Source of the DNA: an uncultured Clostridia bacterium
GTDB taxonomy: Bacteria; Bacillota; Clostridia; TANB77; CAG-508
Direction of reading: 5' to 3'
Length of the DNA: 64,000 nucleotides
NCBI GenBank assembly: GCA_944391575.1
Contig: CALXUC010000003.1
Coordinates: 16,459 to 80,458 of the forward strand
Below are positions 10,625 through 46,282 of the stretch, one piece after another; positions within the stretch are counted from its first letter, which is position 1; each line of letters begins with the position of its first letter. The notes under the pieces were generated by a model. That model was not told the DNA's origin, did not search any database, and was given only the letters and a program-made list of their open reading frames with translations. The position numbers and the translations under genes are program-made.

Positions 10625-10656
10625 ATTATAAAATTAATTTATATTACAAACTTATA

Positions 10657-10692
10657 AAATAAGAGCAAAAAGATACAATTTTTTGCCCTTAT
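10657..10692 (-). terminator. Rho-independent terminator after rpsO
   Basis: 14-bp stem AATAAGGGCAAAAA / TTTTTGCTCTTATT (minus-strand sense, one G-T pair) followed by T-rich sequence. It lies 7 nt past the rpsO stop. Confidence 0.7.
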
Positions 10693-10698
10693 TATCCT

Positions 10699-10962: not shown

Positions 10963-11052
10963 TTAATACACCTCCATAATTTTTTATTCCTAAAACCTAG
11001 TTTAAGTGGTGTTGTTTACCTTAAACAAAGTAATAGGTAACTAACCTTTTTA

Positions 11053-11081
11053 ATTATACTACAAAAATACTTAGTTGTCAA
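11053..11081 (-). promoter_or_regulatory. consensus sigma-A promoter for rpsO
   Basis: Minus strand reads TTGACA - 17 nt - TATAAT, giving an ~85-nt leader before rpsO. Confidence 0.6.
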
Positions 11082-11150
11082 ATTTTTATTTATATTTATG
11101 TATATTTAGAAATTTTTTACAAATACTATTAAAAAATTGGAGGTTTTATA

Positions 11151-28720: not shown

Positions 28721-30369
28721 GGCAATTCTCCTTCTATAGTTACTTTTACAATATTATCCAATTTTACACTACTGTCACTTGATACATTTTTTAATATATT
28801 ATTAGTTTTTAATATAGCTTTAAAATACCCTAAATCATCATAATTTTGTGATTCTGCATTAATTACTATTTTTCCATCAACATTATTCTCTATAGAAGTT
28901 AATTTAACTTCTTTTGGAATAACTGACATTATTCTATTTAATAAAATTGGTATTGCTTTTTTATACTTATTATCTTCAACAACTTGATTTGTAAGACTTT
29001 CTAATTTTGCAATACGTTGTGAATATTCTAAAGATTTGGCTTTAACTGTTTCTGTATTTTCTTGTATAGTTTTAATTTCCTTATTAGTCTCATCTATTAC
29101 TTCATCAGCTTCTGCAATTTTTTTAGTCATTTCACTATTTAAATACACACTTCCAGCTGCAAAAACAGACATACACAATATACCAGTTACACCAACTCTA
29201 ATAGCACTCATTTCAAAAGGCTTTATTGGACCTTTTAATGATAAAGCTGGTTTTAAATCTACTCCACCACCATTTTTAAATCTATTTGCTAATTCTTTAA
29301 AGCTTGGTAATTTAACATCAGAATTTAATTTCATTTGCAATGTTTTAGTAGACATTGTTGTTTTTAAATATGTGTTTTTGAACATTGCTTCTTTATATCT
29401 TTTTTGTAATCCTTGCATTGCAACTGCTACTGCTGAATTCACTTCTATATAATCTTTTATATTTATATTATTAGCAAATTTATCTATAAAAAATGGTGAT
29501 AATATTTCGCATTTATATGTCGGCATATATTCTTGAAAATATAAGTCTATATTATTAATTAAAGCCGCAGAACCAGTAATATAAATTTTTCTAACTGTTA
29601 ATAATTGATTTTCAAATTTATTTTTTACTTCTGATACAATTTTATATAATACTGGCATTATCTCTTTCAAGTATACATTTTCTACTAATTGCATATCACT
29701 AGTTTCCATAGTGTAGATTGTTGTATTTTTACATATCTCGTAAGCTTTTTGTATTGAATTTTCTTTTTCATTTATTTGTTCTATTATGTCTTTCATACCT
29801 AAATTAATAACTTCAATATCATTAATTTCATTATTAACCATAGTAGTTATTTTGGTATCTTCTTCTATATTTACTATTGCGTAATTTTCTTTTTCTTTTT
29901 TTGGCAAATTAGACAATGCTACTGGTAATGGAACTAAATGCCCTACCCTAAAAGCTTGCAATTTTTGCATTTTTGAAGTTATATCAGCTCTTTCAACAGA
30001 TATATATATAGCTTTTGATTTTTCCTTATTCATATAATCTTCCGCCAATATATATCTAGAATCTAATGTTTTGTAACTATACCCTTTTTCATCACACAAT
30101 AATTCAAATTCAGAATTTAACGCTTCTTCTATATCTTTTTTCTTAAGCAAGCTAAATACAGAAAAATAATTATACATTTCCCCTGTTAAATTCATACAAA
30201 TTGGAATATTATGACTATCTGTTTCTTCTAAAATTTCTTTTAAAGCTTTTTCTAGGTCATCATTAAATTTAATTCCAAATGCTTCGATTTTAATATCTTC
30301 TTTTTCAATTCTAACTTTAGCATATTTAATTAAGTTATTTTCCGTTGAAATACCTAAACAAGTCGCCAT
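28717..30369 (-). CDS. pilM: PilM (actin-like ATPase fold) fused to a TM + PilN-like C-terminal region
   Basis: 550 aa. The N-terminal ~330 aa are PilM/FtsA-like, with a TM segment (VTGILCMSVFAAGSVYL) and then coiled coil. It is the first gene of the cluster. Confidence 0.6.
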   Translation of the reverse strand: MATCLGISTENNLIKYAKVRIEKEDIKIEAFGIKFNDDLEKALKEILEETDSHNIPICMNLTGEMYNYFSVFSLLKKKDIEEALNSEFELLCDEKGYSYKTLDSRYILAEDYMNKEKSKAIYISVERADITSKMQKLQAFRVGHLVPLPVALSNLPKKEKENYAIVNIEEDTKITTMVNNEINDIEVINLGMKDIIEQINEKENSIQKAYEICKNTTIYTMETSDMQLVENVYLKEIMPVLYKIVSEVKNKFENQLLTVRKIYITGSAALINNIDLYFQEYMPTYKCEILSPFFIDKFANNINIKDYIEVNSAVAVAMQGLQKRYKEAMFKNTYLKTTMSTKTLQMKLNSDVKLPSFKELANRFKNGGGVDLKPALSLKGPIKPFEMSAIRVGVTGILCMSVFAAGSVYLNSEMTKKIAEADEVIDETNKEIKTIQENTETVKAKSLEYSQRIAKLESLTNQVVEDNKYKKAIPILLNRIMSVIPKEVKLTSIENNVDGKIVINAESQNYDDLGYFKAILKTNNILKNVSSDSSVKLDNIVKVTIEGELP

Positions 30370-32936: not shown

Positions 32937-33290
32937 TTAAAACTGTCCACGATTGATTTTTTTTATTGTATAATTAGTTGTTGAAAAAGTGTTACACAAA
33001 TATTCTACAACCTTTTCAATATTAATACTTATGTCACATAAAAAAATATCAATAGCAGCATACTGATGTTCTGGCCATGTATGAATTGTAAAATGTGATT
33101 CTTTTAATACCAACACTCCACTAACTCCATATGGCTTGAATTGATGAAAGCAGCTCTTTACTACATTAAAATTACCAATCTTTCCTGCTTTCGTCATTAC
33201 ATCTTTTATTTTAGAAATTGAAATAAGATATTCATCGTTACAGTCGTAAAAATCCAATATGTAATGTACACCCAATATATCATTCATCAT
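32937..33290 (-). CDS. speD: pyruvoyl-dependent S-adenosylmethionine decarboxylase proenzyme (SpeD/SpeH type)
   Basis: 117 aa with GVSGVLVLKESHFTIHTWPEHQYAAIDIFLCD, which carries the E-S self-cleavage site and HTWPE. This closely parallels Bacillus SpeD. Confidence 0.85.
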   Translation of the reverse strand: MMNDILGVHYILDFYDCNDEYLISISKIKDVMTKAGKIGNFNVVKSCFHQFKPYGVSGVLVLKESHFTIHTWPEHQYAAIDIFLCDISINIEKVVEYLCNTFSTTNYTIKKINRGQF

Positions 33291-34368
33291 AATTCTCCTC
33301 CATAATCATTTGAAAATAGTCTACTGAATAATCTCTAAAAAATTTTTTTGGTTCTTCAATCCAGCTTCTTACCTCTTCCCATAATTTATTCATCCCTTGA
33401 ACACCATAATAATTTATAAAGTTATCATAGCTTATAAATGCTTTATTAATATCTTTATATGCATCGTTTTTTAAGTATAAACTTTTTGAAAACTTAGCAC
33501 CTGACCAATCTAATATAACAGGAGCAAAAAGTCTTATAGGGAATTCGTTAAAACCTAATTTTACAAGCCCTTCCGTATGTATTCTTTGTGCCCAAATACC
33601 AGACCAATCACTACCATCCAACATTATTGTTAAAGTATTATTCTTCTTATCTTCTTCTAACATGGCCGCACCTTTAGTTAAATCTCTGAATTGAGTATTT
33701 AAATCCACGTATTCTTTATTACTTTCTGTAACATTTATTTCATATGAACCATGAATTGGGCAATCTCCCTTAAGAAATATCTCATTTTTATTATGTTTTT
33801 CTTTTAATTTTTTTATATTTTTTTTACCAAGTCCACATATTGGGCAGATTGTTCTAACATGCAAATCAGACGAAGATGGAAATAACAGTTTTTTAAAATA
33901 CTCCTTTTCATTTATAATATTTATAAGAGTTCTTCTTACAAATTTATTGCTTTGAAATTCATTATAACTTCTTATATAATATGGAAGATTTGCATAAGTT
34001 GATAAGATTTCTAAAATCTCTTTAAATCGTCTCATATTAGCTAGTTCTTTAGTTTCATGATTATAATAACTATGACGTTGATCTTTATAAAAAATCTCAC
34101 CATTATATTCAACTATTTCTGCTGGACTATTCTCTAATTCATCGAATTGAACTTCAGTTTGCACTTTCAAATCATCTCTAATCTTATTTGCCAGTGCAAA
34201 AGCGGACATAAGTGTTGTTATAGTTCCTAAATGCGGACTGCTATTTGGTTGTGCTGATGTATTTATAATTATCTTTTTTTGATTTCTATACTTATATAAT
34301 ATTAAATCGCTAAGTTTGTTAGTTATATGTGCCATTCCAACTGGTGGATAGAATACTTCTCTTATCAC
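33280..34368 (-). CDS. truncated class-I aminoacyl-tRNA-synthetase-like ligase (catalytic domain only)
   Basis: 362 aa with a HIGH-like NSSPHLGT, a KMSKS-like GAKFSKS and a Zn knuckle CPICG…CPIHG. There is no room for an anticodon-binding domain. GTG start with RBS GGAGGT, overlapping the upstream stop by 1 nt. Confidence 0.5.
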   Translation of the reverse strand: MIREVFYPPVGMAHITNKLSDLILYKYRNQKKIIINTSAQPNSSPHLGTITTLMSAFALANKIRDDLKVQTEVQFDELENSPAEIVEYNGEIFYKDQRHSYYNHETKELANMRRFKEILEILSTYANLPYYIRSYNEFQSNKFVRRTLINIINEKEYFKKLLFPSSSDLHVRTICPICGLGKKNIKKLKEKHNKNEIFLKGDCPIHGSYEINVTESNKEYVDLNTQFRDLTKGAAMLEEDKKNNTLTIMLDGSDWSGIWAQRIHTEGLVKLGFNEFPIRLFAPVILDWSGAKFSKSLYLKNDAYKDINKAFISYDNFINYYGVQGMNKLWEEVRSWIEEPKKFFRDYSVDYFQMIMEENYDE

Positions 34369-35420
34369 TATTTACCTCCATGATATACTACCATAATTTC
34401 TTTTTTAAATACTTCTTTTCCAATTTTAACAAATTTCTTTTCTAATTTATTTTTTTCCCCTTTTGTAAAAGGAATAATCTCATTTATTTCAAAAATTATT
34501 TTATTCCTTCTCAATTTATAATGCCATGTTCCCTTTAATCCATTAGATACTAATATTACACCTTCAACTTGTCCAGCCGCTTTCCAAATTAGTGATTTAT
34601 TATTTCCATTTAATACCCATTCCTTATCTTCATAGCTAATTAAAAGTGGATCAAACTTGCCAAGAATAATTGGATAATTTATTTTTATTTCATTAAAATC
34701 CGGCAATGATTCATAATAATATTTTTTATTATTAATATATATATACTTTGCAGATTTAATATACTCATCTAAGTCCTCTTTGATTTCTTTATATTTTAAT
34801 CCAGACCAATGCAAGAAATCTTGCCTTGTTGCCGGTCCATAATATTTAAAATACCTATAAATCAAATCGGAAATTGGCTTTTTATTGTCTATAATATCAT
34901 TTTGCTTATACAATTTTTTATCTTCTTTGTTAAGAATACCATACAGCACCTTATAATACGTAGCTAAAATTAATAAACCACTCCATTCCATTATCTCTTT
35001 TGATTTGTATTTGGGTATAATATTTTGAATTTCTTTTTTTTCTATCATATTATTTTTATTCTTATCTAAAAATCTGACGATCGAATTTAAATATTCACTA
35101 TAATCTAATTCTAAATGTTTAGCATATTTATATACCCAATTATCACTTTCGCGATATAAATCTGAAATTAGATTATAATCATTTTTATGATATATATGTA
35201 ATGTTGTCCTTTGTCCCCAACTTTTAATTAAATTTGTATCAGTAAAAATATTATTTTTATGCTTTATCCTATTATATATAGATATTAATGCATAAGTTTG
35301 ATATTGGCATTGTATACCAATTAATGATTGAACACATATGTCAGCATTTTCAAACCTATTTAATAGTCCATTATTATACAACCTTAACTTTTGCAAGTCT
35401 AAATTTGAATAATCACTCAT
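34368..35420 (-). CDS. HTH_42 winged-helix protein, AlkZ/YcaQ-family DNA glycosylase-like
   Basis: 350 aa with IGIQCQYQTYALISIYNR (Q37-C38-Q39), WGQRTTLH and YFKYYGPATRQDFLHWSGL. This pattern matches the 'winged helix DNA-binding domain' / YcaQ family. Confidence 0.55.
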   Translation of the reverse strand: MSDYSNLDLQKLRLYNNGLLNRFENADICVQSLIGIQCQYQTYALISIYNRIKHKNNIFTDTNLIKSWGQRTTLHIYHKNDYNLISDLYRESDNWVYKYAKHLELDYSEYLNSIVRFLDKNKNNMIEKKEIQNIIPKYKSKEIMEWSGLLILATYYKVLYGILNKEDKKLYKQNDIIDNKKPISDLIYRYFKYYGPATRQDFLHWSGLKYKEIKEDLDEYIKSAKYIYINNKKYYYESLPDFNEIKINYPIILGKFDPLLISYEDKEWVLNGNNKSLIWKAAGQVEGVILVSNGLKGTWHYKLRRNKIIFEINEIIPFTKGEKNKLEKKFVKIGKEVFKKEIMVVYHGGK

Positions 35421-36108
35421 GTTTTATCGCATATATAAGTACAGAATCATAGTTTTCGTCATTAGCTATTGAGACCTTCTTTACATTTAAAATCTTACAA
35501 TTACGTTTTCTAGCAAAATTTTGCACAATTTTTTCAGATAGATAATTATTATTAAATCCCATTTTTTTACTATATGATGTAGAAAAACACCAATTAGCCC
35601 CTAACAATATTCCATCCTTTTTTAACAAATCATAAAGTTTTTCTAAATTACTTATATATTCCCTTTCATTTTTACATAATCCTAATAATCCAAATTGTGA
35701 GACATTGTTATATTTAATGGTACTATTCATAGATGAGCATAAAACGTCACATATTAAATAATTGATATTTGTCTTAAGAACATCATTAAAATCTTTATTA
35801 TACTTCTTTAACGGATATTCATAGCTTTTGGGGTATATTTCTTTTTTTCTAATCTGTTCATTAATAAAAAAAGCTTCTTTAGAAATATCTACACACAATA
35901 CTTTTTCAATATTTTTAAATGCAATTAACCAAAAATATATATTGCTCCCGCTACCAAAGTCAATTAACGTTCCATTAGAAGAATAATTATTTATTAATTC
36001 TAAAATATCTTCTGTCCCTTGGTCTTCTCTAAATGGTGCACCATAATAATCGTAAAAATATCTTAACTGCTTACTATATTCTTCTTTGTTTATCCTATCA
36101 AAATCCAT
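35413..36108 (-). CDS. class I SAM-dependent methyltransferase-fold protein
   Basis: 231 aa with motif I LIDFGSGSNIYF, then acidic CVDIS. Confidence 0.55.
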   Translation of the reverse strand: MDFDRINKEEYSKQLRYFYDYYGAPFREDQGTEDILELINNYSSNGTLIDFGSGSNIYFWLIAFKNIEKVLCVDISKEAFFINEQIRKKEIYPKSYEYPLKKYNKDFNDVLKTNINYLICDVLCSSMNSTIKYNNVSQFGLLGLCKNEREYISNLEKLYDLLKKDGILLGANWCFSTSYSKKMGFNNNYLSEKIVQNFARKRNCKILNVKKVSIANDENYDSVLIYAIKHE

Positions 36109-36144
36109 AATCAGTCACACGTTCAATCTCATAGTTTTATTAAT

Positions 36145-36906
36145 CTATTCGATATGCTCCTTTCTATTTTTATCAAAAATTCGTTTTAACACAATAATAT
36201 ATGTTCCATTATCATATTCAACTTTTTCTTGTATTAAAAATTTATTACTTTTTTCTATTATTTTTTCGACTAAATTATATTCATAGTTGTATAATCTAAA
36301 ATTTGTTTCAAAAAGAAAATTATCTTTATCAAAGTATCGATACCCAAAATCAATATAATTTTTATGATGTATATGCTTATTGTACCTTTTAATATTTAAC
36401 CCTTTAAATGTAAATCGTTTTGAAAAATAAAATTTATTATCTTCAATTTTTGAATCATAGTATGGCAAAAACTTTCCATAATTAAAATTAAATAAATCTA
36501 AAACAATATATTCTGATACAAGATAACTATTATTTAAAAAAGTTTTAAATTCGGAATAGTTTAAATATTGCATCCCTTGCTCTAAAACAAAAATACAATC
36601 ACATTTAATTTTTAACTTATTAATATCTTTCATATCTTGAACATATGTTTTTACATTTTTTATCTTTCTTCTTTTTTTTTGCTCATTTATAAAATCTATC
36701 ATGTTTTTTTCAATATCTATAAAATATGATTCTTTAAATAACTTTGAATAATCCTCTAAATATAATCCGCTAGCACAAGGACAAAGAACCGCATAATTAA
36801 TATAGTATTTGCTTTTAATTGCTTTTAGTAATTTAATATTCTTCATGTCTTTTTTTACTTCTCTACTATAAAAAGCAGCTCTTTCTTTATATGTTATTTT
36901 CTTCAT
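36145..36906 (-). CDS. divergent class I methyltransferase-fold protein
   Basis: 253 aa with a variant motif I AVLCPCASGLYL, then FIDIE. The assignment is tentative. Confidence 0.35.
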   Translation of the reverse strand: MKKITYKERAAFYSREVKKDMKNIKLLKAIKSKYYINYAVLCPCASGLYLEDYSKLFKESYFIDIEKNMIDFINEQKKRRKIKNVKTYVQDMKDINKLKIKCDCIFVLEQGMQYLNYSEFKTFLNNSYLVSEYIVLDLFNFNYGKFLPYYDSKIEDNKFYFSKRFTFKGLNIKRYNKHIHHKNYIDFGYRYFDKDNFLFETNFRLYNYEYNLVEKIIEKSNKFLIQEKVEYDNGTYIIVLKRIFDKNRKEHIE

Positions 36907-37990
36907 AATAATCCCAATGTTCTTTTATAACTTGATGACAAATTTTACCTTTATCAAATATCCTTCCCCTTATAACTTCATGGCTATTCTTCCCTAATAG
37001 TTCATAATCTAGTATTTTTATTATCCATTCTTTTGCATTTGATGAATATGCTTCAGTCGTTGACTTTGGATAAGCAGACGGAAGGTTATCAATTTTACAG
37101 CATACGATTCCATTATCTGATATATATATCGGATTATCTAAAGTGGTATTTTTATAGATACTTGGTATGTAACCGCTCCCATACCCACAGGTCACATCAA
37201 TTACTACTGTTCCTGGTTTTAGCAAATTAAATATTTCTTTTGTTATAATTGGCTCAGTATCAAATGTTGAAATAAGAATTGCACCAATTATAGCGTCCAT
37301 TTTAGGTAAAATCTCTTTCAAATTTTTTTCAGTTGATTCTATACAATGAATACCTTCATCCATGTAAACACTATTCTTTTTTAACTTATTAATATTACTA
37401 CCAAAAACATAAACGTCATTACCCAGTTTTGAAGCAAGTTTAATTGCTGCTCCACCTACATTCCCATAGCCAATTACTGCAATTTTTGATTTTACACAAC
37501 CACGAATCCCAAACAAGGATTTACCTGCTCCACCATATTGTTTTTGTTGATAAAAATTAGCATACATTACAGCCATTTTCCCAGCAATTTCTCCGCCCGG
37601 ATAAGCCATTGGGAAATATCCGTCATCAGTTTCTATAAATTCATATGTATATGCTGTTACTTTCTTTTTTTGTAATTCTTTTAATAATTCATAGTTTCCT
37701 TCAGCATGAAATATTGCAGCAATTTTGGTATTTTCATTTAAATATTTATACTCGTCTTTTGTTGGGTATTTATATTTTAAAATAAAATCACTATTTTTCC
37801 AACAATATTCTTTATCTTTAATTATTGCTCCATGTTTTTTATATTCATCATCTAAAAAGCCAAGTTCTTTACCTGCACCTTCTTCTACATACACTTCATA
37901 TTTTTTTGTTAATTCGTCAATATCATTTGGTAATAGAATAACTCTATTTTCTCCATTAATTGTTTCCTTTAATATGGCGACTTTTTTCAT
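36887..37990 (-). CDS. alanine dehydrogenase / PNT-family NAD(P) dehydrogenase (AlaDH-, opine- or CEOS-like)
   Basis: ENRVILLP, the Rossmann motif IAVIGYGNVGGAAIKLA, VVIDVTCGYGSG and IDNLPSAYPKSTT are present. The ATG at 37990 has RBS AGGGGTGA and a 4-nt overlap with the upstream stop. Confidence 0.6.
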   Translation of the reverse strand: MKKVAILKETINGENRVILLPNDIDELTKKYEVYVEEGAGKELGFLDDEYKKHGAIIKDKEYCWKNSDFILKYKYPTKDEYKYLNENTKIAAIFHAEGNYELLKELQKKKVTAYTYEFIETDDGYFPMAYPGGEIAGKMAVMYANFYQQKQYGGAGKSLFGIRGCVKSKIAVIGYGNVGGAAIKLASKLGNDVYVFGSNINKLKKNSVYMDEGIHCIESTEKNLKEILPKMDAIIGAILISTFDTEPIITKEIFNLLKPGTVVIDVTCGYGSGYIPSIYKNTTLDNPIYISDNGIVCCKIDNLPSAYPKSTTEAYSSNAKEWIIKILDYELLGKNSHEVIRGRIFDKGKICHQVIKEHWDYYEENNI

Positions 37991-38793
37991 ACTTTCACCC
38001 CTACTATACAAATATATTTTCCTCGATTACACAACTTTTCATCTTGTATATATTGCTTTTCTATATTAAAAATATAATCATAATCATCTGTTAATATTTT
38101 ACTTATTGAATATTTATTTGAAGTCAATGTCTCTTCTACACCAATTAATGAAATAACTGGATAGCCACATTTAAAAATAGATTCAATACCATACTGCTTA
38201 TGAATTCTTTCCAGCTCATCTATCTTATTAAAATGCAATTTAGGAACATATTGTGATAGTGAACCAGTATTATTATTTATTACCAATTTTACTTCACAAG
38301 TGTTTCCTTTTAATATATTTAAAGCCAAGCCATTATAAAAATTTTCACCTACAGAAATTGATATACCACCGCTCTTCAAATATGATGATACAATTTTAAT
38401 TAATTGATCAGCATTACAAAAAAATGGTAATACATATATATTTAAAACAATATCAAACTGCTCATCTAACTTTAAATCATTAATATCAGAGTTAACTATT
38501 TTAACACGTTTTTTGAATTTGCTGAGTTTTTGTTTTGCTTGATTAAGCATATTATCAGAGAAATCAACCAATACGCATCTTGTGTTGTCAAACTCTCGCA
38601 AAATTTTATAAGCCCATTCTCCGGTTCCAGCCCCCAACTCTAAAAATACTATTGGTTTTTCTTTAGGAATATGTTTTTTTATAATTTCCCACAATAAATC
38701 ATCAGCTAATTTCCAATATACTTTTTTGTTATTTTCATCATATTTTGTTGATATATTATCAAAATGCTTTAACACTATTTCTTTCTCACCCAT
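37987..38793 (-). CDS. class I SAM-dependent methyltransferase
   Basis: 268 aa with the clear motif I FLELGAGTGEWA, motif II VLVDFS and FDIVLNIYVL. Confidence 0.75.
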   Translation of the reverse strand: MGEKEIVLKHFDNISTKYDENNKKVYWKLADDLLWEIIKKHIPKEKPIVFLELGAGTGEWAYKILREFDNTRCVLVDFSDNMLNQAKQKLSKFKKRVKIVNSDINDLKLDEQFDIVLNIYVLPFFCNADQLIKIVSSYLKSGGISISVGENFYNGLALNILKGNTCEVKLVINNNTGSLSQYVPKLHFNKIDELERIHKQYGIESIFKCGYPVISLIGVEETLTSNKYSISKILTDDYDYIFNIEKQYIQDEKLCNRGKYICIVGVKV

Positions 38794-38795
38794 AA

Positions 38796-39242
38796 TTAAA
38801 TTCTCTCTCTAGATTCTAAAAAAGATAACAACTCTTTTTTTTTATCTAAACTATAATATGATTGTGGGACAATAAAGTTATGAAACTTTTGCTGTAACTC
38901 GCTTAATTTGACTTCCTTTATTGGAATTATTTTTTCTATAGGAATTGCATATCCTATATTATTATGTAAATATTCCATCATACTATTGTAGCTTTCTGGT
39001 TCTTCTTGTTCTGATATAGTAGCTATAGTCTGTGCGTCACCTATTATTGGTTGTCCAAATCTAATTTTAGCAACTATACTTTTTTTGGTTTTTGAAATAT
39101 AAATATATGCGTCACTCGGTTCTTTTAAATATCTTGTTCTGTATTCGTAATGCTTTTTTCCCTGTATCATTGCATTATAATATTCTTCTCTTAAACTCAT
39201 TAAAACACATTTAGGTTCACAGAATGATAATTGTCTCTCCAT
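38796..39242 (-). CDS. ASCH (PUA-like) domain protein
   Basis: 148 aa. MSLREEYYNAMIQGKKHYEYRTR matches the ASCH N-terminal pattern (xIKxEYxxxIlxGxKxxExR). Confidence 0.5.
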   Translation of the reverse strand: MERQLSFCEPKCVLMSLREEYYNAMIQGKKHYEYRTRYLKEPSDAYIYISKTKKSIVAKIRFGQPIIGDAQTIATISEQEEPESYNSMMEYLHNNIGYAIPIEKIIPIKEVKLSELQQKFHNFIVPQSYYSLDKKKELLSFLESRERI

Positions 39243-39244
39243 TT

Positions 39245-39847
39245 TTACTCCCTCTCTTCTATTACTTTCTTTTGATTTATTAATTTAATATTTTTTATTA
39301 CAATATCAGCTACTTCTTCTGGTAATAAGGCTTCTGTATCAATTACGATATATTTAAACCCAATATTTTGCAAAAATTTTTCCATCTTCTCATAACCATC
39401 CTTATACATTGCACAATTAGATAAATCTCTATCTTGTTTATCTCTTTCATAAATTCTTTTCATTCTAGTAGAGACACTTGCCTTTAGTAAAACAGTTAAA
39501 TCCGGTACACCACATAATTTTATCAACTCATAATGTAATGGAATTGTTTCTTTATTTCCATGCCAATAATAATTTGAAACAAAATGCCTATCATAAACTA
39601 TGTTCTTTTCTTGATTACATCTTGTTCCATATAATAAGCCCATTCCATAAAATAAAGTCATAAGAGCCTCATCATTTGTCTTGTACAAATTCCATTCTAA
39701 ATCCTTTAATCTAGATTCACTTAAATTTAATCCTTCAAATAAAAACTTAAATGGCTTATCAAGATATTTATATCCTAACTTTTGCGCTAAAATTTTTGAA
39801 ACCGTCGTCTTTCCTGAACCATCCATTCCTTCAATTGCAATTCTCAT
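39245..39847 (-). CDS. thymidylate-kinase-fold P-loop (d)NMP kinase-like protein
   Basis: 200 aa with IAIEGMDGSGKTT (the Tmk-type P-loop), a DRH motif (YDRHFVSNYYW) and a lid-like RMKRIYERDK. Confidence 0.55.
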   Translation of the reverse strand: MRIAIEGMDGSGKTTVSKILAQKLGYKYLDKPFKFLFEGLNLSESRLKDLEWNLYKTNDEALMTLFYGMGLLYGTRCNQEKNIVYDRHFVSNYYWHGNKETIPLHYELIKLCGVPDLTVLLKASVSTRMKRIYERDKQDRDLSNCAMYKDGYEKMEKFLQNIGFKYIVIDTEALLPEEVADIVIKNIKLINQKKVIEERE

Positions 39848-39872
39848 AAATATTCCTCCAATTCTAACGGCT

Positions 39873-40340
39873 TTAATACAATTTTAAATTCCATCTTAAA
39901 TTTTCATCTGTATTTTCGTTATCTTCATATACCATTTCATTAATGTTTGCATCATTAAAGACCTCTAATAATTTATCAAAGTCAGTAGCCAATTTTTTAT
40001 CTTTCAATTCTTCTTCATCAATCCAATATAACTTTCCCTCTGATGTTTCTGAAATTATTTCTCCGCTATAATCATCTGATATAAATAAAATAACTAGTTG
40101 CCTTTCTTTTTCTTTTTTACTATACCAATCTTTTACTCCACATATTCTCACATTATTTAGTTTTAGACCTGTTTCCTCATACACTTCTCTTTTTACAGAG
40201 GGAACAATGCTTTCTCCGCTCTCAATTTTACCTCCAGGAAATGCAATTCCTTGCCAACTTTTTATTCTTTCTTGAACTAGTACTTGTTTTGTTTTAGGAT
40301 TAACTATTTTACACATATTCATTAATTTAATATTTTCCAT
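39873..40340 (-). CDS. NUDIX hydrolase (MutT-like)
   Basis: Nudix box GGKIESGESIVPSVKREVYEETGL. I prefer the ATG at 40340, which has RBS GGAGTGAGG. The ORF track extends to 40361. Confidence 0.8.
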   Translation of the reverse strand: MENIKLMNMCKIVNPKTKQVLVQERIKSWQGIAFPGGKIESGESIVPSVKREVYEETGLKLNNVRICGVKDWYSKKEKERQLVILFISDDYSGEIISETSEGKLYWIDEEELKDKKLATDFDKLLEVFNDANINEMVYEDNENTDENLRWNLKLY

Positions 40341-40441
40341 TACCTCACTCCTCACATACATTTATATCAAAAAGAAATCACAATAAAGGACCTAACTTTT
40401 TAAAATAAATCAAAAAATAACAAATATGATAATTACAATAT

Positions 40442-40470
40442 ATCTTAACATGCTTAACAAATAATGTCAA
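40442..40470 (-). promoter_or_regulatory. candidate sigma-A promoter of the 10-gene operon
   Basis: Minus strand reads TTGACA - 17 nt - TAAGAT, about 100 nt upstream of the Nudix start. Confidence 0.4.
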
Positions 40471-40506
40471 TACCGCAAGACTTATTTCGTAAATGAATGT
40501 AAAAAT

Positions 40507-40541: not shown

Positions 40542-40612
40542 AAGTTTGATGATATTTTCACTAATTTTTTAGGGAATAAAAAATACTAGAGTGTGCGAAC
40601 TCTAGTATTTTA
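40542..40612 (+). ncRNA. candidate ~70-nt small RNA (promoter-to-terminator unit)
   Basis: Bounded by the consensus promoter and the hairpin AATACTAGAG/CTCTAGTATT plus TTTT. The only ORF inside is a 7-codon one without an RBS. Confidence 0.25.
40578..40611 (-). terminator. bidirectional terminator after the replication-relaxation gene
   Basis: Stem AATACTAGAG / CTCTAGTATT with an 8-nt loop, an A6 run before and T4 after. It lies 6 nt past the stop at 40617. Confidence 0.65.
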
Positions 40613-40616
40613 CTTA

Positions 40617-41555
40617 TTAATTTAAAATCGCTATATCTGGATTTTCTATTTTATATTTTTTAGTTTCTTTATCTAAAACGAATTTAACAAGAGTTTTTCC
40701 TAACTTTTCTGAAATTTGTTTTAAATCTGTTGTAAAGTATAATGGCATATCTTTTATTTCTACTTTATTTACTACGACAGTTTTAAATGTTTCTGCCATA
40801 TGCTTATCATCTTCGCATACAAATATTATAAGTGGTTTTTGTGGGAATCCACCATCCATTGGTACGAAGTTATCATAAAAATCTTGATATAATCTCATTT
40901 TATCTACTAATTTGTTTTGCCAATCTTCTTCTCTTCTTACAACTTCAAATAAAAAGTCTAATTCTTTTTTGTCTCTTTCTAATTTTACACAACCGCCTGT
41001 TACTTTAAATTTTTTCCCCATCATTTTCGCATTTAATGTTGGTTTTGGAGCATAATCTTTGGCTAATCCTACTTTTTCTAAATATGCTATTATAACTTGA
41101 TTTCCAGCTAATCTTTTCTTAAACATTTCTATTGGTTTTGTATTATCAGTTGGTTGCCACTTACATTCTACTTCTTTAGAATTTAATAAGTATTTTCCCA
41201 TTTTTTCCATACAGTAAATTCTAAAAATGCCTTGTCCTTCTTCTGATTCAAAAAAATATCTTGTTAACATTTTTAATTTTACCATTTGTTCTAATTTTGT
41301 ATTTACTCTATCTTGTGTATCTATATCAACATTTTCTATTTTTAGCATTTGAAAAATTTGGCGTGATGTCATAAATTCAAATTTATTAATTAATTCCAAA
41401 ATTTTAAAATGTACATCTGTAATTTGACCATTATTTATTCTAGAAATAATTTGATTTATTGATACAAATCCATCCTTTCCAGCAAATTTTTTTATTTCTC
41501 CTTCTCTCATTGCAAAAGGTGATACTTTTGCTTTAATTTCAGCATCTGTTACCAT
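40617..41555 (-). CDS. replication-relaxation (Replic_Relax) family protein, plasmid/ICE-associated
   Basis: 312 aa. HFKILELINKFEFMTSRQIFQML…KLEQMVKLKMLTRYFF…FRIYCMEKMGKYLL fits the wHTH pattern of that family. Confidence 0.5.
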   Translation of the reverse strand: MVTDAEIKAKVSPFAMREGEIKKFAGKDGFVSINQIISRINNGQITDVHFKILELINKFEFMTSRQIFQMLKIENVDIDTQDRVNTKLEQMVKLKMLTRYFFESEEGQGIFRIYCMEKMGKYLLNSKEVECKWQPTDNTKPIEMFKKRLAGNQVIIAYLEKVGLAKDYAPKPTLNAKMMGKKFKVTGGCVKLERDKKELDFLFEVVRREEDWQNKLVDKMRLYQDFYDNFVPMDGGFPQKPLIIFVCEDDKHMAETFKTVVVNKVEIKDMPLYFTTDLKQISEKLGKTLVKFVLDKETKKYKIENPDIAILN

Positions 41556-41672: not shown

Positions 41673-42401
41673 CTAGTGTTTTTTTATTAATTCTTTCACT
41701 TCTTTTTCAGTTAAAAATCTATATTTCCCTATTTCCAGTGGTTTTACTGCTATATTTCCTATTTTAGTTCTATGCAAAGCTAATACTTTTTTTCCTATTG
41801 CCTCACACATTTTTCGTACTTCCCTATTTTTGCCTTCATGAATTATTATTTCTAATCTAGTTTCATCTTTTTCTAAATCATATTTTATTATTTTTACTTT
41901 TGCTTTTCCTGAAATATAATCTTCTATTTTTACTCCATTTTTTAATTTTTCCACTTCTTCTTGTAATACTTTTCCTCTTAAAGTTACAATATATGTTTTT
42001 TCTATTTCATATTTTGGATGAGTAATTTTATAAATAAAATCACCATCGTTTGTTAATATAATTGCACCTGATGTATACATATCTAATCTTCCTACTGGAA
42101 CTATTCTCTCTTTTATATTTTTCACTAATTCCATTACAGTTGGCCTACCAAATTGTTCTTTTACTGTTGTAACATATCCAATTGGCTTATTTAATAATAC
42201 ATATATTTTCTTACTGCTTACATTTTGTAGCTTTTTACCATTATATTCTACTACATCTTTACTTGGATCTATCTTTATCCCCAATTTATTAACAATTTTG
42301 CCATTTACTTTTACTAAATTATTTAAAATATACTCTTCACATTTTCTTCTTGAATCAATTCCACAGTCTGCCATATATTTTTGTAATCTAACTTCGTTCA
42401 T
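41673..42401 (-). CDS. rluB: rRNA pseudouridine synthase, RsuA/RluB family (S4 domain)
   Basis: RLQKYMADCGIDSRRKCEEYI (S4 domain) and VGRLDMYTSG (catalytic Asp). The ATG at 42401 has RBS GAGG. Confidence 0.85.
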   Translation of the reverse strand: MNEVRLQKYMADCGIDSRRKCEEYILNNLVKVNGKIVNKLGIKIDPSKDVVEYNGKKLQNVSSKKIYVLLNKPIGYVTTVKEQFGRPTVMELVKNIKERIVPVGRLDMYTSGAIILTNDGDFIYKITHPKYEIEKTYIVTLRGKVLQEEVEKLKNGVKIEDYISGKAKVKIIKYDLEKDETRLEIIIHEGKNREVRKMCEAIGKKVLALHRTKIGNIAVKPLEIGKYRFLTEKEVKELIKKH

Positions 42402-42425
42402 ACGATACCTCAATTTATATTTTTA

Positions 42426-42486
42426 TTTTTGATAAAAAATATTAATATATAAGTACTACTAATATTTATTTAGCTATGAATTGTAA
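42426..42486 (-). repeat. half copy of type B nested-palindrome element
   Basis: TTTTTGATAAAAAATATTAATATATAAGTACTACTAATATTTATTTAGCTATGAATTGTAAC is near-identical to 19126-19187. The core and the other arm are missing. Confidence 0.8.
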
Positions 42487-42499
42487 CATAATTTTATAT

Positions 42500-43405
42500 T
42501 TAAAATCTATCAATTAACTCTAATACATCTTTAAAATATTTTGGTAGTTCCGCTTCTAATTCCATTTTTTTATTTGTAATTGGATGATTAAATTCTAGTT
42601 TCCAAGCATGCAACATTTGCCCCTCTATATTAAATGGATTTTTACCATTCGAATATACCATATCTCCTACTACAGGATATCCAATTTCTGCCATATGTAC
42701 TCTTATTTGATGTGTTCTTCCTGTTTCTATTTTTATTTCTAATAAAGTATACCCATCATATCGTTTTAATACTTTAAAATGTGTTATTGCATTTTTACCA
42801 TTCTTCTTAACAGCCATTTTAGTTCTAACATTATCGCTTCTGCCTATTGGCATATCTATTGTTGCTTCGTTTTCTTTTACAACGCCTCTTACTAATGCTA
42901 AATATGTCTTTTTTATATTATGATTTTTTAAATCTTCGCTTAATTTTATATGTGCTTTATCATTTTTTGCAACGATAATTAATCCAGATGTATCCTTATC
43001 AAGCCTATGTACTATTCCTGGTCGTATCTCACCACCTATACCTGATAAAGAACCTTTGCACCTCTCTAAAACGGCATTTACTAAAGTTCCTTCCAAATTA
43101 CCATTCCCAGGGTGAACTACCATTCCTTTTTCCTTATTTATAACTATTATGTCGTTATCTTCATATACTACATTTAATGGTAATTTTTCAGGTTTTAGCG
43201 TAGTTTCTTTTGGTTCTTCTACTACAACTCTTATAACATCTCCTACATTCACTTTATACGAAGCTTTAACTATTTTTTCATTTACTGTTACATTGCCACT
43301 ATCTATTAATCTCTGTATCATAACTCTTGATAAATCTTTATTCTGTTCACTTAAATATTTATCTAATCTTATTCCTGAATCTTTAGAAATATATTTATAT
43401 TCCAT
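42500..43405 (-). CDS. rluD: RluA-family pseudouridine synthase (RluD-like)
   Basis: 301 aa with an S4 domain, HRLDKDTSGL and GRTHQIRVH. Confidence 0.9.
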   Translation of the reverse strand: MEYKYISKDSGIRLDKYLSEQNKDLSRVMIQRLIDSGNVTVNEKIVKASYKVNVGDVIRVVVEEPKETTLKPEKLPLNVVYEDNDIIVINKEKGMVVHPGNGNLEGTLVNAVLERCKGSLSGIGGEIRPGIVHRLDKDTSGLIIVAKNDKAHIKLSEDLKNHNIKKTYLALVRGVVKENEATIDMPIGRSDNVRTKMAVKKNGKNAITHFKVLKRYDGYTLLEIKIETGRTHQIRVHMAEIGYPVVGDMVYSNGKNPFNIEGQMLHAWKLEFNHPITNKKMELEAELPKYFKDVLELIDRF

Positions 43406-43434
43406 ATACTACACGCCTTTTATTATAATTTAGC

Positions 43435-43520
43435 TCTTAAGATATAGCTATTTTTAATCAAAAAACAAGCTCAAGCGACACAATCCGGGTCTTGATTTGC
43501 AAATAGCTATATCTCAAGAA
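43435..43520 (+). repeat. Nested-palindrome element, type A, core-only copy
   Basis: TCTTAAGATATAGCTATTTTTAATCAAAAAACAAGCTCAAGCGACACAATCCGGGTCTTGATTTGCAAATAGCTATATCTCAAGAA. Confidence 0.85.
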
Positions 43521-43542
43521 TTATTATTTCAAAATAATACAA

Positions 43543-44166
43543 TTATTCTTTAGTTAATTCTATAACTTTATGTAGAACTTGTCCGTATTTCCCAATACCT
43601 GTTTCACCTTTGTTTATTAAAAAATCGTTAAAATCTATTTTTTCTTGTTTTGTTACAATTTCATTATTTTCCTTTGTTATAATTTCTGCATCTATCATAC
43701 CTTTTTCGTTTTCCATTAATTTTAAAGCATCTGTTGCTTTTACTTTTACTAAACCTGAAACTTCGCTTTCATCAAAATTTAAATGACTAAAGTCATCATC
43801 AAACTCGTACACAAATACATTAGCAAATGCTCTATCATTAAAAACACTTCCATCAGATTTTATTTTATTCATACTAAATTTTACCACATCTACTAAATTT
43901 GCATTATCATAAAATAAATCTAATCCTATTTCCTCCTTTATTTCTCTTCCAAAAGCTTCTTTTACATCTTCGCCAGCAATTACATGGCCTGAAGCCGTTG
44001 TGTAAAGCTTATTCTCGTCTTTCCTTATTTGAAAATATACATTTCCAGCTTCATCATACAACCAACAATGAACAGTTTTATGCCACAATGCATTTTCATG
44101 AATATTTTTCCTAGTCTCCCTTCCTAAATAATTTAATTTTTCATCATAATAATCTAAATACTCCAT
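43543..44166 (-). CDS. NUDIX hydrolase
   Basis: 207 aa with Nudix box SGHVIAGEDVKEAFGREIKEEIGL. Confidence 0.75.
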   Translation of the reverse strand: MEYLDYYDEKLNYLGRETRKNIHENALWHKTVHCWLYDEAGNVYFQIRKDENKLYTTASGHVIAGEDVKEAFGREIKEEIGLDLFYDNANLVDVVKFSMNKIKSDGSVFNDRAFANVFVYEFDDDFSHLNFDESEVSGLVKVKATDALKLMENEKGMIDAEIITKENNEIVTKQEKIDFNDFLINKGETGIGKYGQVLHKVIELTKE

Positions 44167-44626: not shown

Positions 44627-46282
44627 TTACTCATCTACTTCACTATATCCTGAATTTAACCTTTCATATATTTTAAAATGCTCATCTGTATAAATGCAAT
44701 TATAATTATCGTCTTGATTTAATAATAAGTTTAATTTTCCATTTTTAACGATTATAACATGTGTTACTCCATATTCTTCAAATACTGATTCATATCCTAC
44801 GCTCATTCCATATACATTTATACAATCATTAAATATGTTTACACCTTCATTAAATTCTGGTGTGTATAAATCGCATCTTGAGTCTATAAATACTGGTATT
44901 CCTCTATATATTAAGTAACTACCATAATTATATTCATTAAATAATTTCATTCTATCTACATCTAAATTTTCTAATATATAATCTGCAGCTTCTATAGGAT
45001 ATTCTGATGTAGATATATATTCTTGATTATATTTAGGTTTTAATAATGAAACTGCCATTGTTGTAATTAGTACTAATGTTATTATTATTCCAAATGGCTT
45101 GGTCATTAATTGCATTACTTCTTTTGTACCGTCTTTATCGTACTTATCAAAAAGTTGTACTAATATATTTGAAATTGGTATTAATGCTATTAAATATACC
45201 ATAGAAGCTTGTCTCCTACTAATTAATGCCAATATCATTAAACCAAATATCATAAACCAATCTTTTAATCTTAATTTTACTTTTGCAAATATAGCCAACA
45301 TAATTGTTAATCCAAATAAAATTGAAAAACTTATATTATTAGCTAATGTCATTGGTAAATGTTCATTTATAGATTTTGTTGTCGTTCCATCCATTATTCT
45401 AAATAAATATGTGTAAGGCATATCTCCTATAGGTGTTAAGAAACCAGTAAATCCACATATTAAAGCTATTAAAATTAACCATTTACAATTAGAATTTTTT
45501 TCAAATTGAATCTTATCTGTAATATAATCTTCTTTACCTTTATAATCTAATAATTTAGACATTTTTGCATATACTTTTATTAATTTAGAATTTAATTCTT
45601 TAATTAATTCTACATCATTATTAGCTTTTTGAATTTTCTTATTTAATCTTTTTATTTTAAATTTATAATAATATATATCTAAATTAATTAAAAACGCATT
45701 ACAAATATAATCACCAATATATGGTAAGAATAACACAAAATAAAATGGCCATACTGCTGAGTGAACATTTGCTATTATTATTGGTAATATGATTAAGCCT
45801 ATTGCATACCTTTTCTTCTTAGTAGCTAAAAACTTCTCTATAAAAAATACTTCTAGTAAAAATAATATAAATGTAACTAATTGAGCGCGTGCCGCAATAA
45901 ACGATTGTAGTAAGTAAATAGATAATAGCGCCATTACAAATGCTAATAAGTGATTTTTATTAAGTTTAGAATGTACTGTATATATCAAAAGTCCTAATAT
46001 TGCTGTAAGAATACAGGTAGATAAATATATTCCCGTCATTCCACCAATATTATACACTAAATATACAAATACATCATATGCCCAATGTGGGAATGCATAT
46101 TCAAGATTTTCATGCCACGAAAATGGATCTTGCCCTACAGATATACCATTTTCTACAATATATTCTCCAATTTTTATAGTATAAAAAGTATCATTTTGTA
46201 ATGCCACAGGAGCTATAGCGAAACAAAATATAATTATTGATATAATTGCTAAAATTTCAAATTTTAATTTATATTTTTCCAT
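44627..46282 (-). CDS. polytopic membrane protein (GT-C/ArnT-like fold possible)
   Basis: 551 aa with more than 10 TM helices and a C-terminal soluble domain. No confident family. Confidence 0.35.
   Translation of the reverse strand: MEKYKLKFEILAIISIIIFCFAIAPVALQNDTFYTIKIGEYIVENGISVGQDPFSWHENLEYAFPHWAYDVFVYLVYNIGGMTGIYLSTCILTAILGLLIYTVHSKLNKNHLLAFVMALLSIYLLQSFIAARAQLVTFILFLLEVFFIEKFLATKKKRYAIGLIILPIIIANVHSAVWPFYFVLFLPYIGDYICNAFLINLDIYYYKFKIKRLNKKIQKANNDVELIKELNSKLIKVYAKMSKLLDYKGKEDYITDKIQFEKNSNCKWLILIALICGFTGFLTPIGDMPYTYLFRIMDGTTTKSINEHLPMTLANNISFSILFGLTIMLAIFAKVKLRLKDWFMIFGLMILALISRRQASMVYLIALIPISNILVQLFDKYDKDGTKEVMQLMTKPFGIIITLVLITTMAVSLLKPKYNQEYISTSEYPIEAADYILENLDVDRMKLFNEYNYGSYLIYRGIPVFIDSRCDLYTPEFNEGVNIFNDCINVYGMSVGYESVFEEYGVTHVIIVKNGKLNLLLNQDDNYNCIYTDEHFKIYERLNSGYSEVDE

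Follow-up and report, generated by a model that had tools for sequence, protein, structure and literature searches.

A mobile ten-gene operon of gut bacteria combines an aminoacyl-tRNA synthetase-like ligase and its ASCH partner with an AlkZ-like glycosylase homolog

What does a bacterium make with an operon that joins nucleotide-handling enzymes, methyltransferases, a dehydrogenase, a decarboxylase, a DNA glycosylase homolog and an aminoacyl-tRNA synthetase (aaRS)-like protein? The question is raised by ten consecutive open reading frames (ORFs) on the minus strand of contig CALXUC010000003.1 (assembly GCA_944391575.1), which belongs to an uncultured Clostridia bacterium. A stretch of 64,000 nucleotides of this contig (the window; G+C content ~26%) was analyzed, and positions are those of the window unless a locus handle (L followed by a number, for loci of other genomes) precedes them. 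The original prediction, made from the letters alone, described an orphan operon and offered three readings: (a) a decorated nucleoside or nucleotide metabolite with built-in self-protection, (b) a genotoxin cluster with AlkZ-type resistance, or (c) a hypermodification of DNA or tRNA bases. Here, we report that the ten genes form a single operon, transferred between gut bacteria as a 7.5-kb unit, and that the conserved unit within it is the pair of aaRS-like ligase and ASCH protein, which also exists as a stand-alone mobile module. The cassette probably makes or installs an amino-acid-decorated nucleotide or base able to harm DNA, and a compact biosynthetic cassette with glycosylase self-protection is the classification that we favor.

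A discrete cassette shared among gut bacteria

The ten ORFs (32937-40361, minus strand) are tightly packed as a single operon, as had been proposed. The junctions, in operon order from gene 10 to gene 1, measure +25, +2, +2, -4, -20, +36, -8, -1 and -11 nt; two of them are 2-nt gaps and five are overlaps, one more than the four counted originally, the overlap at 33280/33290 having been missed. The junction between genes 7 and 6 is -4 nt if gene 6 starts with the ATG at 37990 and -25 nt if it starts with the TTG at 38011, the ATG being the likelier start.

Comparison with other genomes shows where this unit ends. The block 32946-40472 (minus strand) has 77.5-82.6% nucleotide identity to four cassette loci of other assemblies (L005, L008, L019 and L020; blastn), homology stops exactly at the operon ends, and the rest of the window has no match to those loci. 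Since the homology is confined to the operon, this common block is a discrete, transferable 7.5-kb cassette placed in differing flanks. Fifteen other assemblies have the ten genes in this order, as far as their contigs reach, so the term orphan does not apply; these assemblies are mostly labeled as metagenome-assembled genomes (MAGs) of uncultured gut Bacilli, and one is named 'Firmicutes bacterium CAG:822'. All ten genes have dN/dS values of 0.08-0.27 against three cassette-bearing genomes, indicating purifying selection, and therefore none of them is a chance ORF. The sizes of the closest protein clusters (225 and 261 member sequences), taken together with the Hadza, Brazilian and Chinese gut metagenomes named as samples, show the cassette to be common in the human gut.

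In other genomes, the cassette loci often have a serine recombinase or a tyrosine integrase nearby. The extended cassette resides on chromosomes or transposons and is all but absent from viral collections: a single contig in IMG/VR encodes a ligase relative, the methyltransferase-fold protein MT3 (gene 4) has no match in phage or plasmid collections, and PHROGs returned generic matches for cassette proteins and none for the AlkZ-like protein, MT2 (gene 5) or MT3. A cassette-free site in a related strain was not found, the look-up with spoVAD returning a 2.7-kb contig with the same spoVA-side junction. One assembly (CAKOHQ01; L007 and L012) holds two copies of the extended cassette. Another (CALVZC01; L017 and L066) holds an extended cassette together with a stand-alone three-gene module of the kind described below, which hints that the two forms are not redundant.

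On its 5' side the operon is bounded by a hairpin with a 13-bp stem and a T-run (40580-40611, minus strand), which terminates the Replic_Relax gene upstream. Gene 10 probably begins with the ATG at 40340, in front of which lies a GAGGAG ribosome-binding site. The TTGACA-17-TAAGAT promoter that had been proposed is present as a sequence (40442-40470, minus strand, with TG before the -10 hexamer) and falls inside the block conserved in L008. As a consensus match only, it does not exceed what chance would give: 82 promoter-like hexamer matches were observed for 73 expected. We keep it as a candidate only, because such hexamers occur at chance density in AT-rich DNA. No Rfam family and no tRNA (ARAGORN) was found across the whole window.

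The ligase and its ASCH partner form the conserved core

The domain calls made originally were verified by Pfam and NCBIfam models or, for the ASCH and aaRS-like proteins, by AlphaFold2 (AF2) models searched with Foldseek. The Nudix protein, the thymidylate-kinase fold, the methyltransferase MT1 (gene 7), the N- and C-terminal AlaDH_PNT domains, the AlkZ-like protein and the AdoMet_dc domain all score above Pfam or NCBIfam thresholds. The aaRS-like, HTH_42 AlkZ-like and alanine dehydrogenase-like calls, for which a move to unrelated housekeeping families had been named as a possible refutation, were confirmed and refined.

The core protein of the cassette, encoded by gene 2 (33280-34368, minus strand), is a truncated class I lysyl-tRNA synthetase (LysRS)-like ligase of 362 aa. 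It has no Pfam or NCBIfam match, and a direct sequence search of the PDB returned noise only. The assignment comes from its AF2 model (built with 52 homologs; pLDDT 92.6), for which the top Foldseek match is the class I LysRS 1irx (E 2.8e-9, TMq 0.51), followed by GluRS, MetRS, CysRS, GluQRS and BshC, and from its motifs. Across the 52 sequences, QPNxxPHxG (HIGH-like) and DWSGxKxSKS (KMSKS-like) are invariant: in the PHLGT of the first, P45, H46 and G48 are invariant and T49 nearly so, and in the KFSKS of the second, K292, S294, K295 and S296 are invariant. The HIGH region aligns with 'HVGN' of 1irx. Invariance extends to C175, C178 and C203, with H206 nearly so.

Thus, the ligase shares with class I LysRS the Rossmann-type catalytic fold, the HIGH- and KMSKS-like motifs and a Cys-rich knuckle. 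Fold and signature motifs agree with LysRS, whereas sequence score and domain architecture do not. The family profile reaches 1irx with a marginal E-value of 0.025, and PF01921 (tRNA-synt_1f) is carried by 4 of 120 among the ligase homologs listed. The structural alignment covers the catalytic part only (~300 of 507 residues); the C-terminal anticodon-binding domain is lacking, as it is in GluQRS, and the family consensus is ~360 aa long versus ~500 for a full LysRS. A profile search among 1.84 billion entries gave 544 representatives at E <= 1e-3, and since this is far too few to include LysRS, the family appears separate from the canonical enzymes. The ligase is a new branch of class I aaRS-like ligases. 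By analogy with the truncated class I paralogs GluQRS, MshC and TmcAL, it would work as they do; TmcAL, for instance, is aaRS-like, forms an acyl-adenylate and acylates N4 of cytidine (bioRxiv 10.64898/2026.02.27.708502). Unlike GluQRS/YadB, MshC, BshC and TmcAL, none of which has such a partner, the ligase has an obligate ASCH partner.

Database names for the ligase are solely 'hypothetical protein' or 'tRNA synthetase', the latter also in PHROGs, and a homolog search started from a Streptomyces member returned more than 600 Streptomyces relatives with only such generic names. The Cys/His set could bind zinc in a knuckle of the class I aaRS kind or hold an Fe-S site like the one reported for BlsK. 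BlsK is a tRNA-dependent leucyl-transferase of blasticidin S biosynthesis (PMC12710036). The ligase family may be related to it.

ASCH-A, the partner protein (gene 8; 38796-39242, minus strand), is ZmASCH-like and belongs to the GKER subgroup, with the motif QGKKHYEYR. It scores below the Pfam cutoff (18.6 vs 21.2 bits), and a few close homologs do carry PF04266. Its AF2 model (pLDDT 91.7) finds ZmASCH first (5guq/5y6c; TM 0.73-0.76, E 7e-10) and then TthASCH 2dp9 and the TRIP4 ASCH domain; the family profile reaches 5guq at 7e-8. All 63 homologs have the K, E and R of the octapeptide GxKxxExR, and 55 of them have its G. Several ASCH proteins strip N4-acetylcytidine (ac4C) from tRNA, and the Lys and Glu of the GKER motif are reported to be essential for removal of the N4-acetyl group from tRNA cytidine (bioRxiv 10.64898/2026.02.27.708502). 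The β-barrel fold and the GKER octapeptide are shared with YqfB and TthASCH, which are N4-acylcytidine and tRNA ac4C amidohydrolases, and with ZmASCH. Unlike these three, the cassette ASCH is sub-threshold in Pfam and always paired or fused with the ligase, and stand-alone modules carry two differing ASCH proteins.

A locus scan with one genome per GTDB species yielded 79 loci encoding a ligase relative, and synteny was counted in a set of 83 loci. Within this set, the ligase adjoins, or is fused to, an ASCH-A homolog in 68 loci (iterated profiles and de novo clustering of neighbors). The loci span Firmicutes, Proteobacteria, the candidate phyla radiation (CPR), DPANN archaea, plasmids and temperate Streptomyces phages. 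A second, shorter ASCH protein (ASCH-B; PF04266/DUF3850), in which the K, E and R of the octapeptide are essentially invariant (30-31 of 31), follows in ~30 loci. The ligase is also found fused to ASCH-A (P0297, L068), to ASCH-B (P0346, P0362) and to an AdoMetDC domain (P0254).

The two- or three-gene module occurs alone in Micrarchaeota, Pacearchaeota, Woesearchaeota and Aenigmarchaeota, and likewise in Saccharibacteria, other CPR, gut Bacilli and Clostridia. Its immediate neighbors vary widely: 133 proteins carry 159 Pfam families, of which none is seen more than three times. Loci of the three-gene form include L035, L037-L042, L044, L049, L051, L058, L063, L065, L075 and L078, among others, with the ligase at ~10001-11100 in most of them. 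With a ligase, a 140-aa ASCH-A and a 118-aa ASCH-B amid unrelated neighbors, this form is compact and experimentally tractable. The pair is also carried by Streptomyces linear plasmids (L091, L092) and by the temperate Streptomyces phages Picard and Mojorita, where it adjoins the integrase and is annotated as 'tRNA synthetase' and 'RNA-binding protein'; in Picard (L088, 5959-7430) its integrase-proximal position is moron-like.

Enzymes of the extension

The core is extended by an alanine dehydrogenase (AlaDH)-like gene in ~33 loci, MT2 in 33 (blastp clustering) or 36 (iterated profile), MT3 in 31, an AlkZ-like gene in 30 and an S-adenosylmethionine (SAM) decarboxylase (AdoMetDC)-like gene in 28.

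The AlaDH family variant (gene 6; 36887-37990, minus strand) matches PF05222 (3e-27) and PF01262 (9e-36) and aligns end to end with AlaDH structures, its closest PDB entries being true L-alanine dehydrogenases (6e-48). Its TIGR00518 score is below the equivalog cutoff (200.6 vs 391.85 bits). In M. tuberculosis numbering, R15, K75, H96 and E118 are kept as invariant residues and the catalytic set is incomplete, Asp270 having been lost: D270G and Q271Y occur in 24 of 24 sequences, and M133 is Gly in 21 of 24. We infer that the 2-oxo-acid site is kept and the amine site enlarged, which would suit a secondary-amine (opine-type) synthase; the sole basis of this assignment is the change of Asp270 and Met133 to Gly and of Gln271 to Tyr, taken to open the ammonia site. 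The AlaDH/PNT fold, the carboxylate-binding residues and the catalytic His are shared with N5-(1-carboxyethyl)ornithine synthase and Lys-forming saccharopine dehydrogenase; unlike these opine-type synthases, the variant has true L-alanine dehydrogenases as its nearest sequences. A pyruvate-kinase (PK)-like gene adjoins it in L033 and L043 and lies one gene away in L086.

Three genes encode methyltransferase-fold proteins. MT1 (gene 7; 37987-38793, minus strand) is a class I SAM methyltransferase (Methyltransf_25/31/12/11, 1e-13 to 4e-16) with weak full-length resemblance to CmoM, BioC and UbiE; a distinct copy is found only in the ten-gene version of the cassette (blastp clusters), which makes it a lineage-specific accessory. 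MT2 (gene 5; 36145-36906, minus strand) and MT3 (gene 4; 35413-36108, minus strand) are just above their Pfam cutoffs (PF13649, 30.1 vs 27 bits, and PF01234, 25.9 vs 25 bits with E 6.8e-6, respectively). The MT2 family profile has a small-molecule-type class I fold, matching 9ri2 (5e-13), 3d2l (1e-12) and then glycine/sarcosine N-methyltransferase, ToxA and TehB. That of MT3, in which D50, G52 and G54 of the SAM motif are invariant, matches NNMT structures weakly (2e-3), in keeping with an NNMT/PNMT-like fold. Profile comparison found no resemblance of MT2 or MT3 to DNA methyltransferases, Spermine_synth/BpsA or spermidine synthase. Both proteins resemble small-molecule N-methyltransferases in their profiles, and the aminopropyltransferase role suggested for them originally is not borne out.

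Gene 1 (32937-33290, minus strand) encodes a pyruvoyl decarboxylase of the AdoMetDC family (PF02675, 7e-37), with a TIGR03330 score of 124 bits against the curated cutoff of 75.65. The Glu-Ser self-processing site (KES|HFTIHTWPE) and, downstream of it, the His and the Cys (IFLC) are visible in the translation, and we take their residues to have the roles known from T. maritima AdoMetDC. Its specificity for SAM is predicted only, because a pyridoxal phosphate (PLP)-dependent Orn/Arg-type decarboxylase holds the corresponding position in L086. An apparent fusion of AdoMetDC with MT2 in a Burkholderiaceae locus (L043), which would imply that MT2 uses decarboxylated SAM (dcSAM), was rejected because the two domains lie in different frames, the long ORF being a high-GC artifact.

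The operon begins with two nucleotide-handling genes. Gene 10 (39873-40361, minus strand) encodes a Nudix hydrolase (PF00293, 1.3e-17; dN/dS 0.09-0.15), and gene 9 (39245-39847, minus strand) a thymidylate/(d)CMP-kinase-fold P-loop kinase (Tmk-like; PF02223, 2e-16), with TIGR00041 and TIGR02173 matches below their cutoffs.

An AZL-type glycosylase homolog outside its usual setting

The AlkZ-like protein (gene 3; 34368-35420, minus strand) is an HTH_42 DNA glycosylase homolog that matches PF06224 over residues 30-329 of 350 (5e-22; 79.4 vs 25.9 bits). Its IQCQ aligns with the VQAQ of AlkZ 5uuj, which places QCQ opposite the catalytic QAQ, and 25 of 28 cluster homologs retain QΦQ, in which Φ is Cys, Ser or Ala and so not strictly aliphatic. 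The motif (Q/H)ΦQ defines the AZL clade, which is enriched in Streptomyces genotoxin clusters, and QΦD marks the YcaQ-like housekeeping clade (PMC9040887). By domain and motif, the protein is a predicted member of the AZL clade. As with AlkZ of the azinomycin B cluster and HedH4 of the hedamycin cluster, an AZL-type gene lies inside a multi-enzyme operon and not at a conserved housekeeping locus. AlkZ and HedH4, however, belong to Streptomyces polyketide or nonribosomal peptide clusters with exporters, whereas the cassette sits in a low-GC gut Firmicute and contains no polyketide synthase, nonribosomal peptide synthetase or exporter; no electrophilic warhead chemistry is evident in it, unlike in those clusters. 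Lack of an exporter is common to the AlkZ-containing clusters, the cassette included.

Variant clusters

The subset of AlaDH-like, MT2, MT3, AlkZ-like, aaRS-like and ASCH genes, with or without the decarboxylase, recurs across phyla. It is found in Pseudoalteromonas, Thermoactinomycetaceae, Christensenella, Burkholderiaceae, an alphaproteobacterium and a CPR bacterium. Together with the conservation of the whole order in 15 assemblies, this answers the concern, raised beforehand, that homologs of these genes might never co-localize. In Pseudoalteromonas, the six-gene set is cargo between TnsABC and TniQ of a Tn7-like element. In a gut-metagenome version, the neighbors include a 2231-aa helicase and transposases of the IS21/Mu kind, and a PK-like gene and another ligase/ASCH pair are present. 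On the common human-gut contig concerned (L002-L004, 1-16443; P0052, 174 index blocks), the cassette stands beside the helicase, which is of the DUF8437/SNF2 type, and SpoVG; the PK-like gene, the second ASCH/ligase-like pair and then the IS21 and Mu-type transposases follow it. Versions of the Burkholderiaceae type have, in addition, two PhyH dioxygenases, a further methyltransferase and a PK-like gene.

Nucleotide-handling genes recur as accessories, the Nudix and Tmk-like genes being those of the present lineage. L023 and L026 carry a nucleoside 2-deoxyribosyltransferase, two Tmk/dNK-like kinases, a 232-aa protein and a Nudix gene. L025, a CPR locus, has this set minus the Nudix gene and plus an AlkZ-like gene; the idea that AlkZ-like protein and deoxyribosyltransferase are mutually exclusive alternatives was dropped, both being present there. 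On a Pantoea sp. JZ29 plasmid (L090, 8264-12044), a methyltransferase and the ligase are joined in one operon by a LOG-family nucleotide N-glycosidase (TIGR00730), a DMT transporter and a HAM1 NTP pyrophosphatase, a nucleotide-centered variant without ASCH.

Other relatives have exporters. The variant of Streptococcus infantis and S. pneumoniae (L045-L047, 2649-12211) comprises two ATP-grasp ligases, the ligase/ASCH pair, two ABC exporters and a BpsA_C-type aminopropyltransferase-like gene that is restricted to this variant. The one on a Macrococcus plasmid (L089, 1837-8048) has two ATP-grasp ligases, the pair and an MFS transporter. Both adjoin an integrase or recombinase, and together they look like a pathway of its own for a secreted metabolite, in genera related to pathogens. 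Some MAGs of gut Bacilli and Clostridia (L052, L053, L059, L076) encode radical-SAM enzymes and DegT aminotransferases, with an ABC exporter in L052, L053 and L059. L033 has PK-like, AlaDH, MT2 and ligase genes and two ABC exporters, without an AlkZ-like gene, and L036 adjoins a Dam-like DNA methyltransferase.

Known defense models cover only the periphery of the cassette. PADLOC-DB 2.0 gave no significant match for the ligase, the AlkZ-like protein, the AlaDH variant, MT2, MT3 or AdoMetDC, and none of the 52 ligase homologs matched. The matches of the Tmk-like kinase (PDC-M51B, 4e-18; VakA, 2e-14), ASCH-A (PDC-M11B, 2e-14), the Nudix hydrolase (PDC-S07, 1e-10) and MT1 (mad2) are to generic folds and unvalidated candidate families.

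What the cassette might make

A full-text literature search found no paper describing this gene combination, and no characterized pathway, database model or defense model matches it either, in line with the earlier remark that no characterized pathway with it was known. Regarding the readings offered originally, the evidence leans to a blend of (a) and (b). We tentatively favor the possibility that the cassette makes an aminoacylated, N-alkylated product derived from a nucleotide or base, by analogy with the families described above, and protects its carrier with the glycosylase. The decarboxylase would supply an amine or dcSAM, and the AlaDH variant would condense the amine reductively with pyruvate or a related 2-oxo acid. 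The resulting N-(carboxyalkyl) amino acid could be N-methylated by MT2, MT3 and, in this lineage, MT1. The ligase would then adenylate the carboxylate with ATP and couple it to an acceptor presented by ASCH, most likely the exocyclic N4 amine of a cytosine-type base or nucleotide if the TmcAL and ASCH analogies hold, with the Tmk-like kinase and the Nudix hydrolase setting the phosphorylation state of the nucleotide. The AZL-type glycosylase would excise lesions from the carrier's own DNA; we propose that it travels with the pathway because the product or an intermediate reacts with DNA or is incorporated into it.

Exporters and ATP-grasp ligases in the sister clusters are as expected of small-molecule pathways. 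Aminopropylation by MccD/MccE is a feature of microcin C biosynthesis, and the blasticidin S pathway has the CMP hydrolase BlsM and the N-methyltransferase BlsL. With these two pathways the cassette and its relatives share a logic, and not homology: a methyltransferase-fold enzyme and a decarboxylase, nucleotide N-glycosidase-type enzymes (the deoxyribosyltransferase and LOG of sister loci), N-methylation, ligation of an amino acid to a nucleoside scaffold and, in sister clusters, exporters. Unlike them, the window encodes no precursor peptide, ThiF-like enzyme or sugar-modifying enzyme. The aminoacyl transfer by BlsK serves as cryptic self-protection in the blasticidin S pathway (PMC12710036).

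Several points weigh against a biosynthetic role of this kind. The order of the steps and the identity of the acceptor derive from family analogies alone. The AlkZ-containing clusters lack an exporter and therefore do not point to a secreted toxin; their product may remain intracellular or be a nucleic-acid modification. MT2 and MT3 are not aminopropyltransferase-like, and therefore the cassette has no identified enzyme for the use of dcSAM. In addition, the module is present in CPR and DPANN, whose tiny genomes rarely hold secondary-metabolite pathways, and the ligase/ASCH gene pair lies beside a temperate-phage integrase; these occurrences suggest a macromolecular or conflict-related target.

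Such a target is central to the main rival idea, possible but rather doubtful in our view, that the ligase attaches an amino acid to a base within DNA or tRNA/RNA itself, in the manner of TmcAL. ASCH would bind or flip the target base or erase the mark, the AlkZ-like protein would be a DNA-handling component, and the dehydrogenase, decarboxylase and methyltransferases would tailor the amino acid in place. The last step recalls phage thymidine hypermodification, in which, as Lee et al. are said to have described in 2018, an amino acid is appended to a DNA base and then decarboxylated; the decarboxylase-after-ligation logic reportedly has its parallel in 5-NeOmdU synthesis, as does the combination of a P-loop kinase, an amino-acid-appending enzyme and a decarboxylase on a mobile element. 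Unlike those phages, the cassette lacks the 5-hmdU kinase, aGPT-Pplase, radical-SAM and PLP enzyme families. A base as substrate is consistent with ASCH proteins acting on or binding nucleic acids, several removing ac4C from tRNA; with the crystal structure of the TRIP4 ASCH domain with double-stranded DNA, ZmASCH being the structure closest to ASCH-A; with the occurrence of the module on plasmids, a Tn7-like element and temperate phages and in CPR and DPANN genomes; with the exporter-free AlkZ-containing clusters; and with the Dam-like methyltransferase gene next to L036. It fits less well with MT2 and MT3, which are small-molecule N-methyltransferase-like and have no target-recognition domains, or with the AlaDH variant, which keeps a site for a free 2-oxo acid. 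Enzymes of mononucleotides recur (Tmk-like, Nudix, deoxyribosyltransferase, LOG, HAM1), sister clusters have exporters, and a glycosylase with an intact catalytic motif would destroy a base modification and not install it. A wider formulation, to which we would give similarly low credence, leaves open whether the acceptor is in the pool, in DNA or in RNA: aaRS-derived ligases with ASCH base-binding partners would aminoacylate a nucleobase (N4-cytosine-type), forming a hitherto unrecognized mobile-element hypermodification/conflict class across Bacteria, CPR and DPANN, and the gut-Firmicute version would form a cationic N-alkylated adduct whose lesions are handled by the AlkZ-type glycosylase. 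On this formulation, the cassette would be a case of endogenous DNA-adduct chemistry encoded by commensals.

A system of anti-phage defense or inter-element conflict is less likely still. It would make a toxic or chain-terminating nucleotide analog within the cell, comparable to what prokaryotic viperins and their kinases do, to poison invading replication while the AlkZ-like glycosylase clears the host DNA. The PADLOC matches point this way, as do the transport of the cassette as cargo of Tn7-like and integrative elements, the moron-like position of the Picard gene pair, the missing exporter and the deoxynucleoside-salvage-type genes of sister loci. Those matches, however, are confined to peripheral genes and their PDC families are unvalidated candidates, while the five most conserved proteins (ligase, AlaDH variant, MT2, MT3 and AlkZ-like) and all 52 ligase homologs have none; moreover, the immediate neighbors of the stand-alone module show no defense-island enrichment, and no typical defense sensor or effector is present. 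The distribution of the self-contained two- or three-gene unit over unrelated contexts, plasmids and prophages, with catalytic residues kept in both partners, would also agree with a DarT/DarG-like addiction module, of which the extended cassette would be a later elaboration. Here, by analogy, the ligase would act as the toxin, by acylation of a nucleotide or RNA that is essential, and the ASCH amidohydrolase(s) would be its antidote. This we consider very improbable, as partners fused into single polypeptides in several lineages are unusual for toxin-antitoxin systems, and a pair built into multi-enzyme pathways with exporters speaks for cooperative and not antagonistic chemistry. Finally, every domain family in the operon has housekeeping members and the flanks are ordinary chromosomal genes (spoVA, rluB/D, lspA, pilus genes, comEC), as a fortuitous meeting of polyamine, alanine, nucleotide-sanitation and DNA-repair genes would have it. 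Such a juxtaposition is effectively excluded by synteny and by the homology borders: 15 other assemblies keep the gene order at ~80% identity, their homology goes no further than the operon borders, the core subset is kept across phyla and in transposon cargo, fusion proteins and family-specific signature substitutions exist, and the genes are translationally coupled.

AlkZ-type glycosylases have served as beacons for genotoxin pathways in Streptomyces. An AZL gene in a cassette that circulates among Bacilli MAGs, several of them from the human gut (Hadza, Brazilian and Chinese cohorts), could mark a DNA-reactive metabolite or a DNA modification from human commensals. The gene-cluster family has no matching model or paper among those searched, and the ligase chemistry would be new enzymology. 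The presence of the module on plasmids, a transposon and phages and in CPR and DPANN suggests a compact and widely exchanged function on nucleotides or nucleic acids, performed by two or three proteins.

Genes flanking the cassette

Immediately upstream of the cassette, a Replic_Relax gene (40617-41555, minus strand; PF13814, 2e-7) stands alone with its own terminator. It lies outside the block common to other genomes, and therefore it may be a remnant of another mobile element or of the vehicle that delivered the cassette. Three minus-strand ORFs of 231, 550 and 551 aa have no Pfam match (28025-28720, 28717-30369 and 44627-46282, respectively); the first two, which share 4 nt, are flanked by the pilus genes on one side and the dodecin/spoVA operon on the other. 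The downstream flank consists of ordinary chromosomal genes, dodecin and spoVAC/AD/AE. Upstream, two tandem S4-domain, RluA-type pseudouridine synthases are followed by a second, unrelated Nudix gene and lspA (41673-44166, minus strand), all of them housekeeping genes outside the cassette. Type IV pilus genes, RNase J and comEC are found further out.

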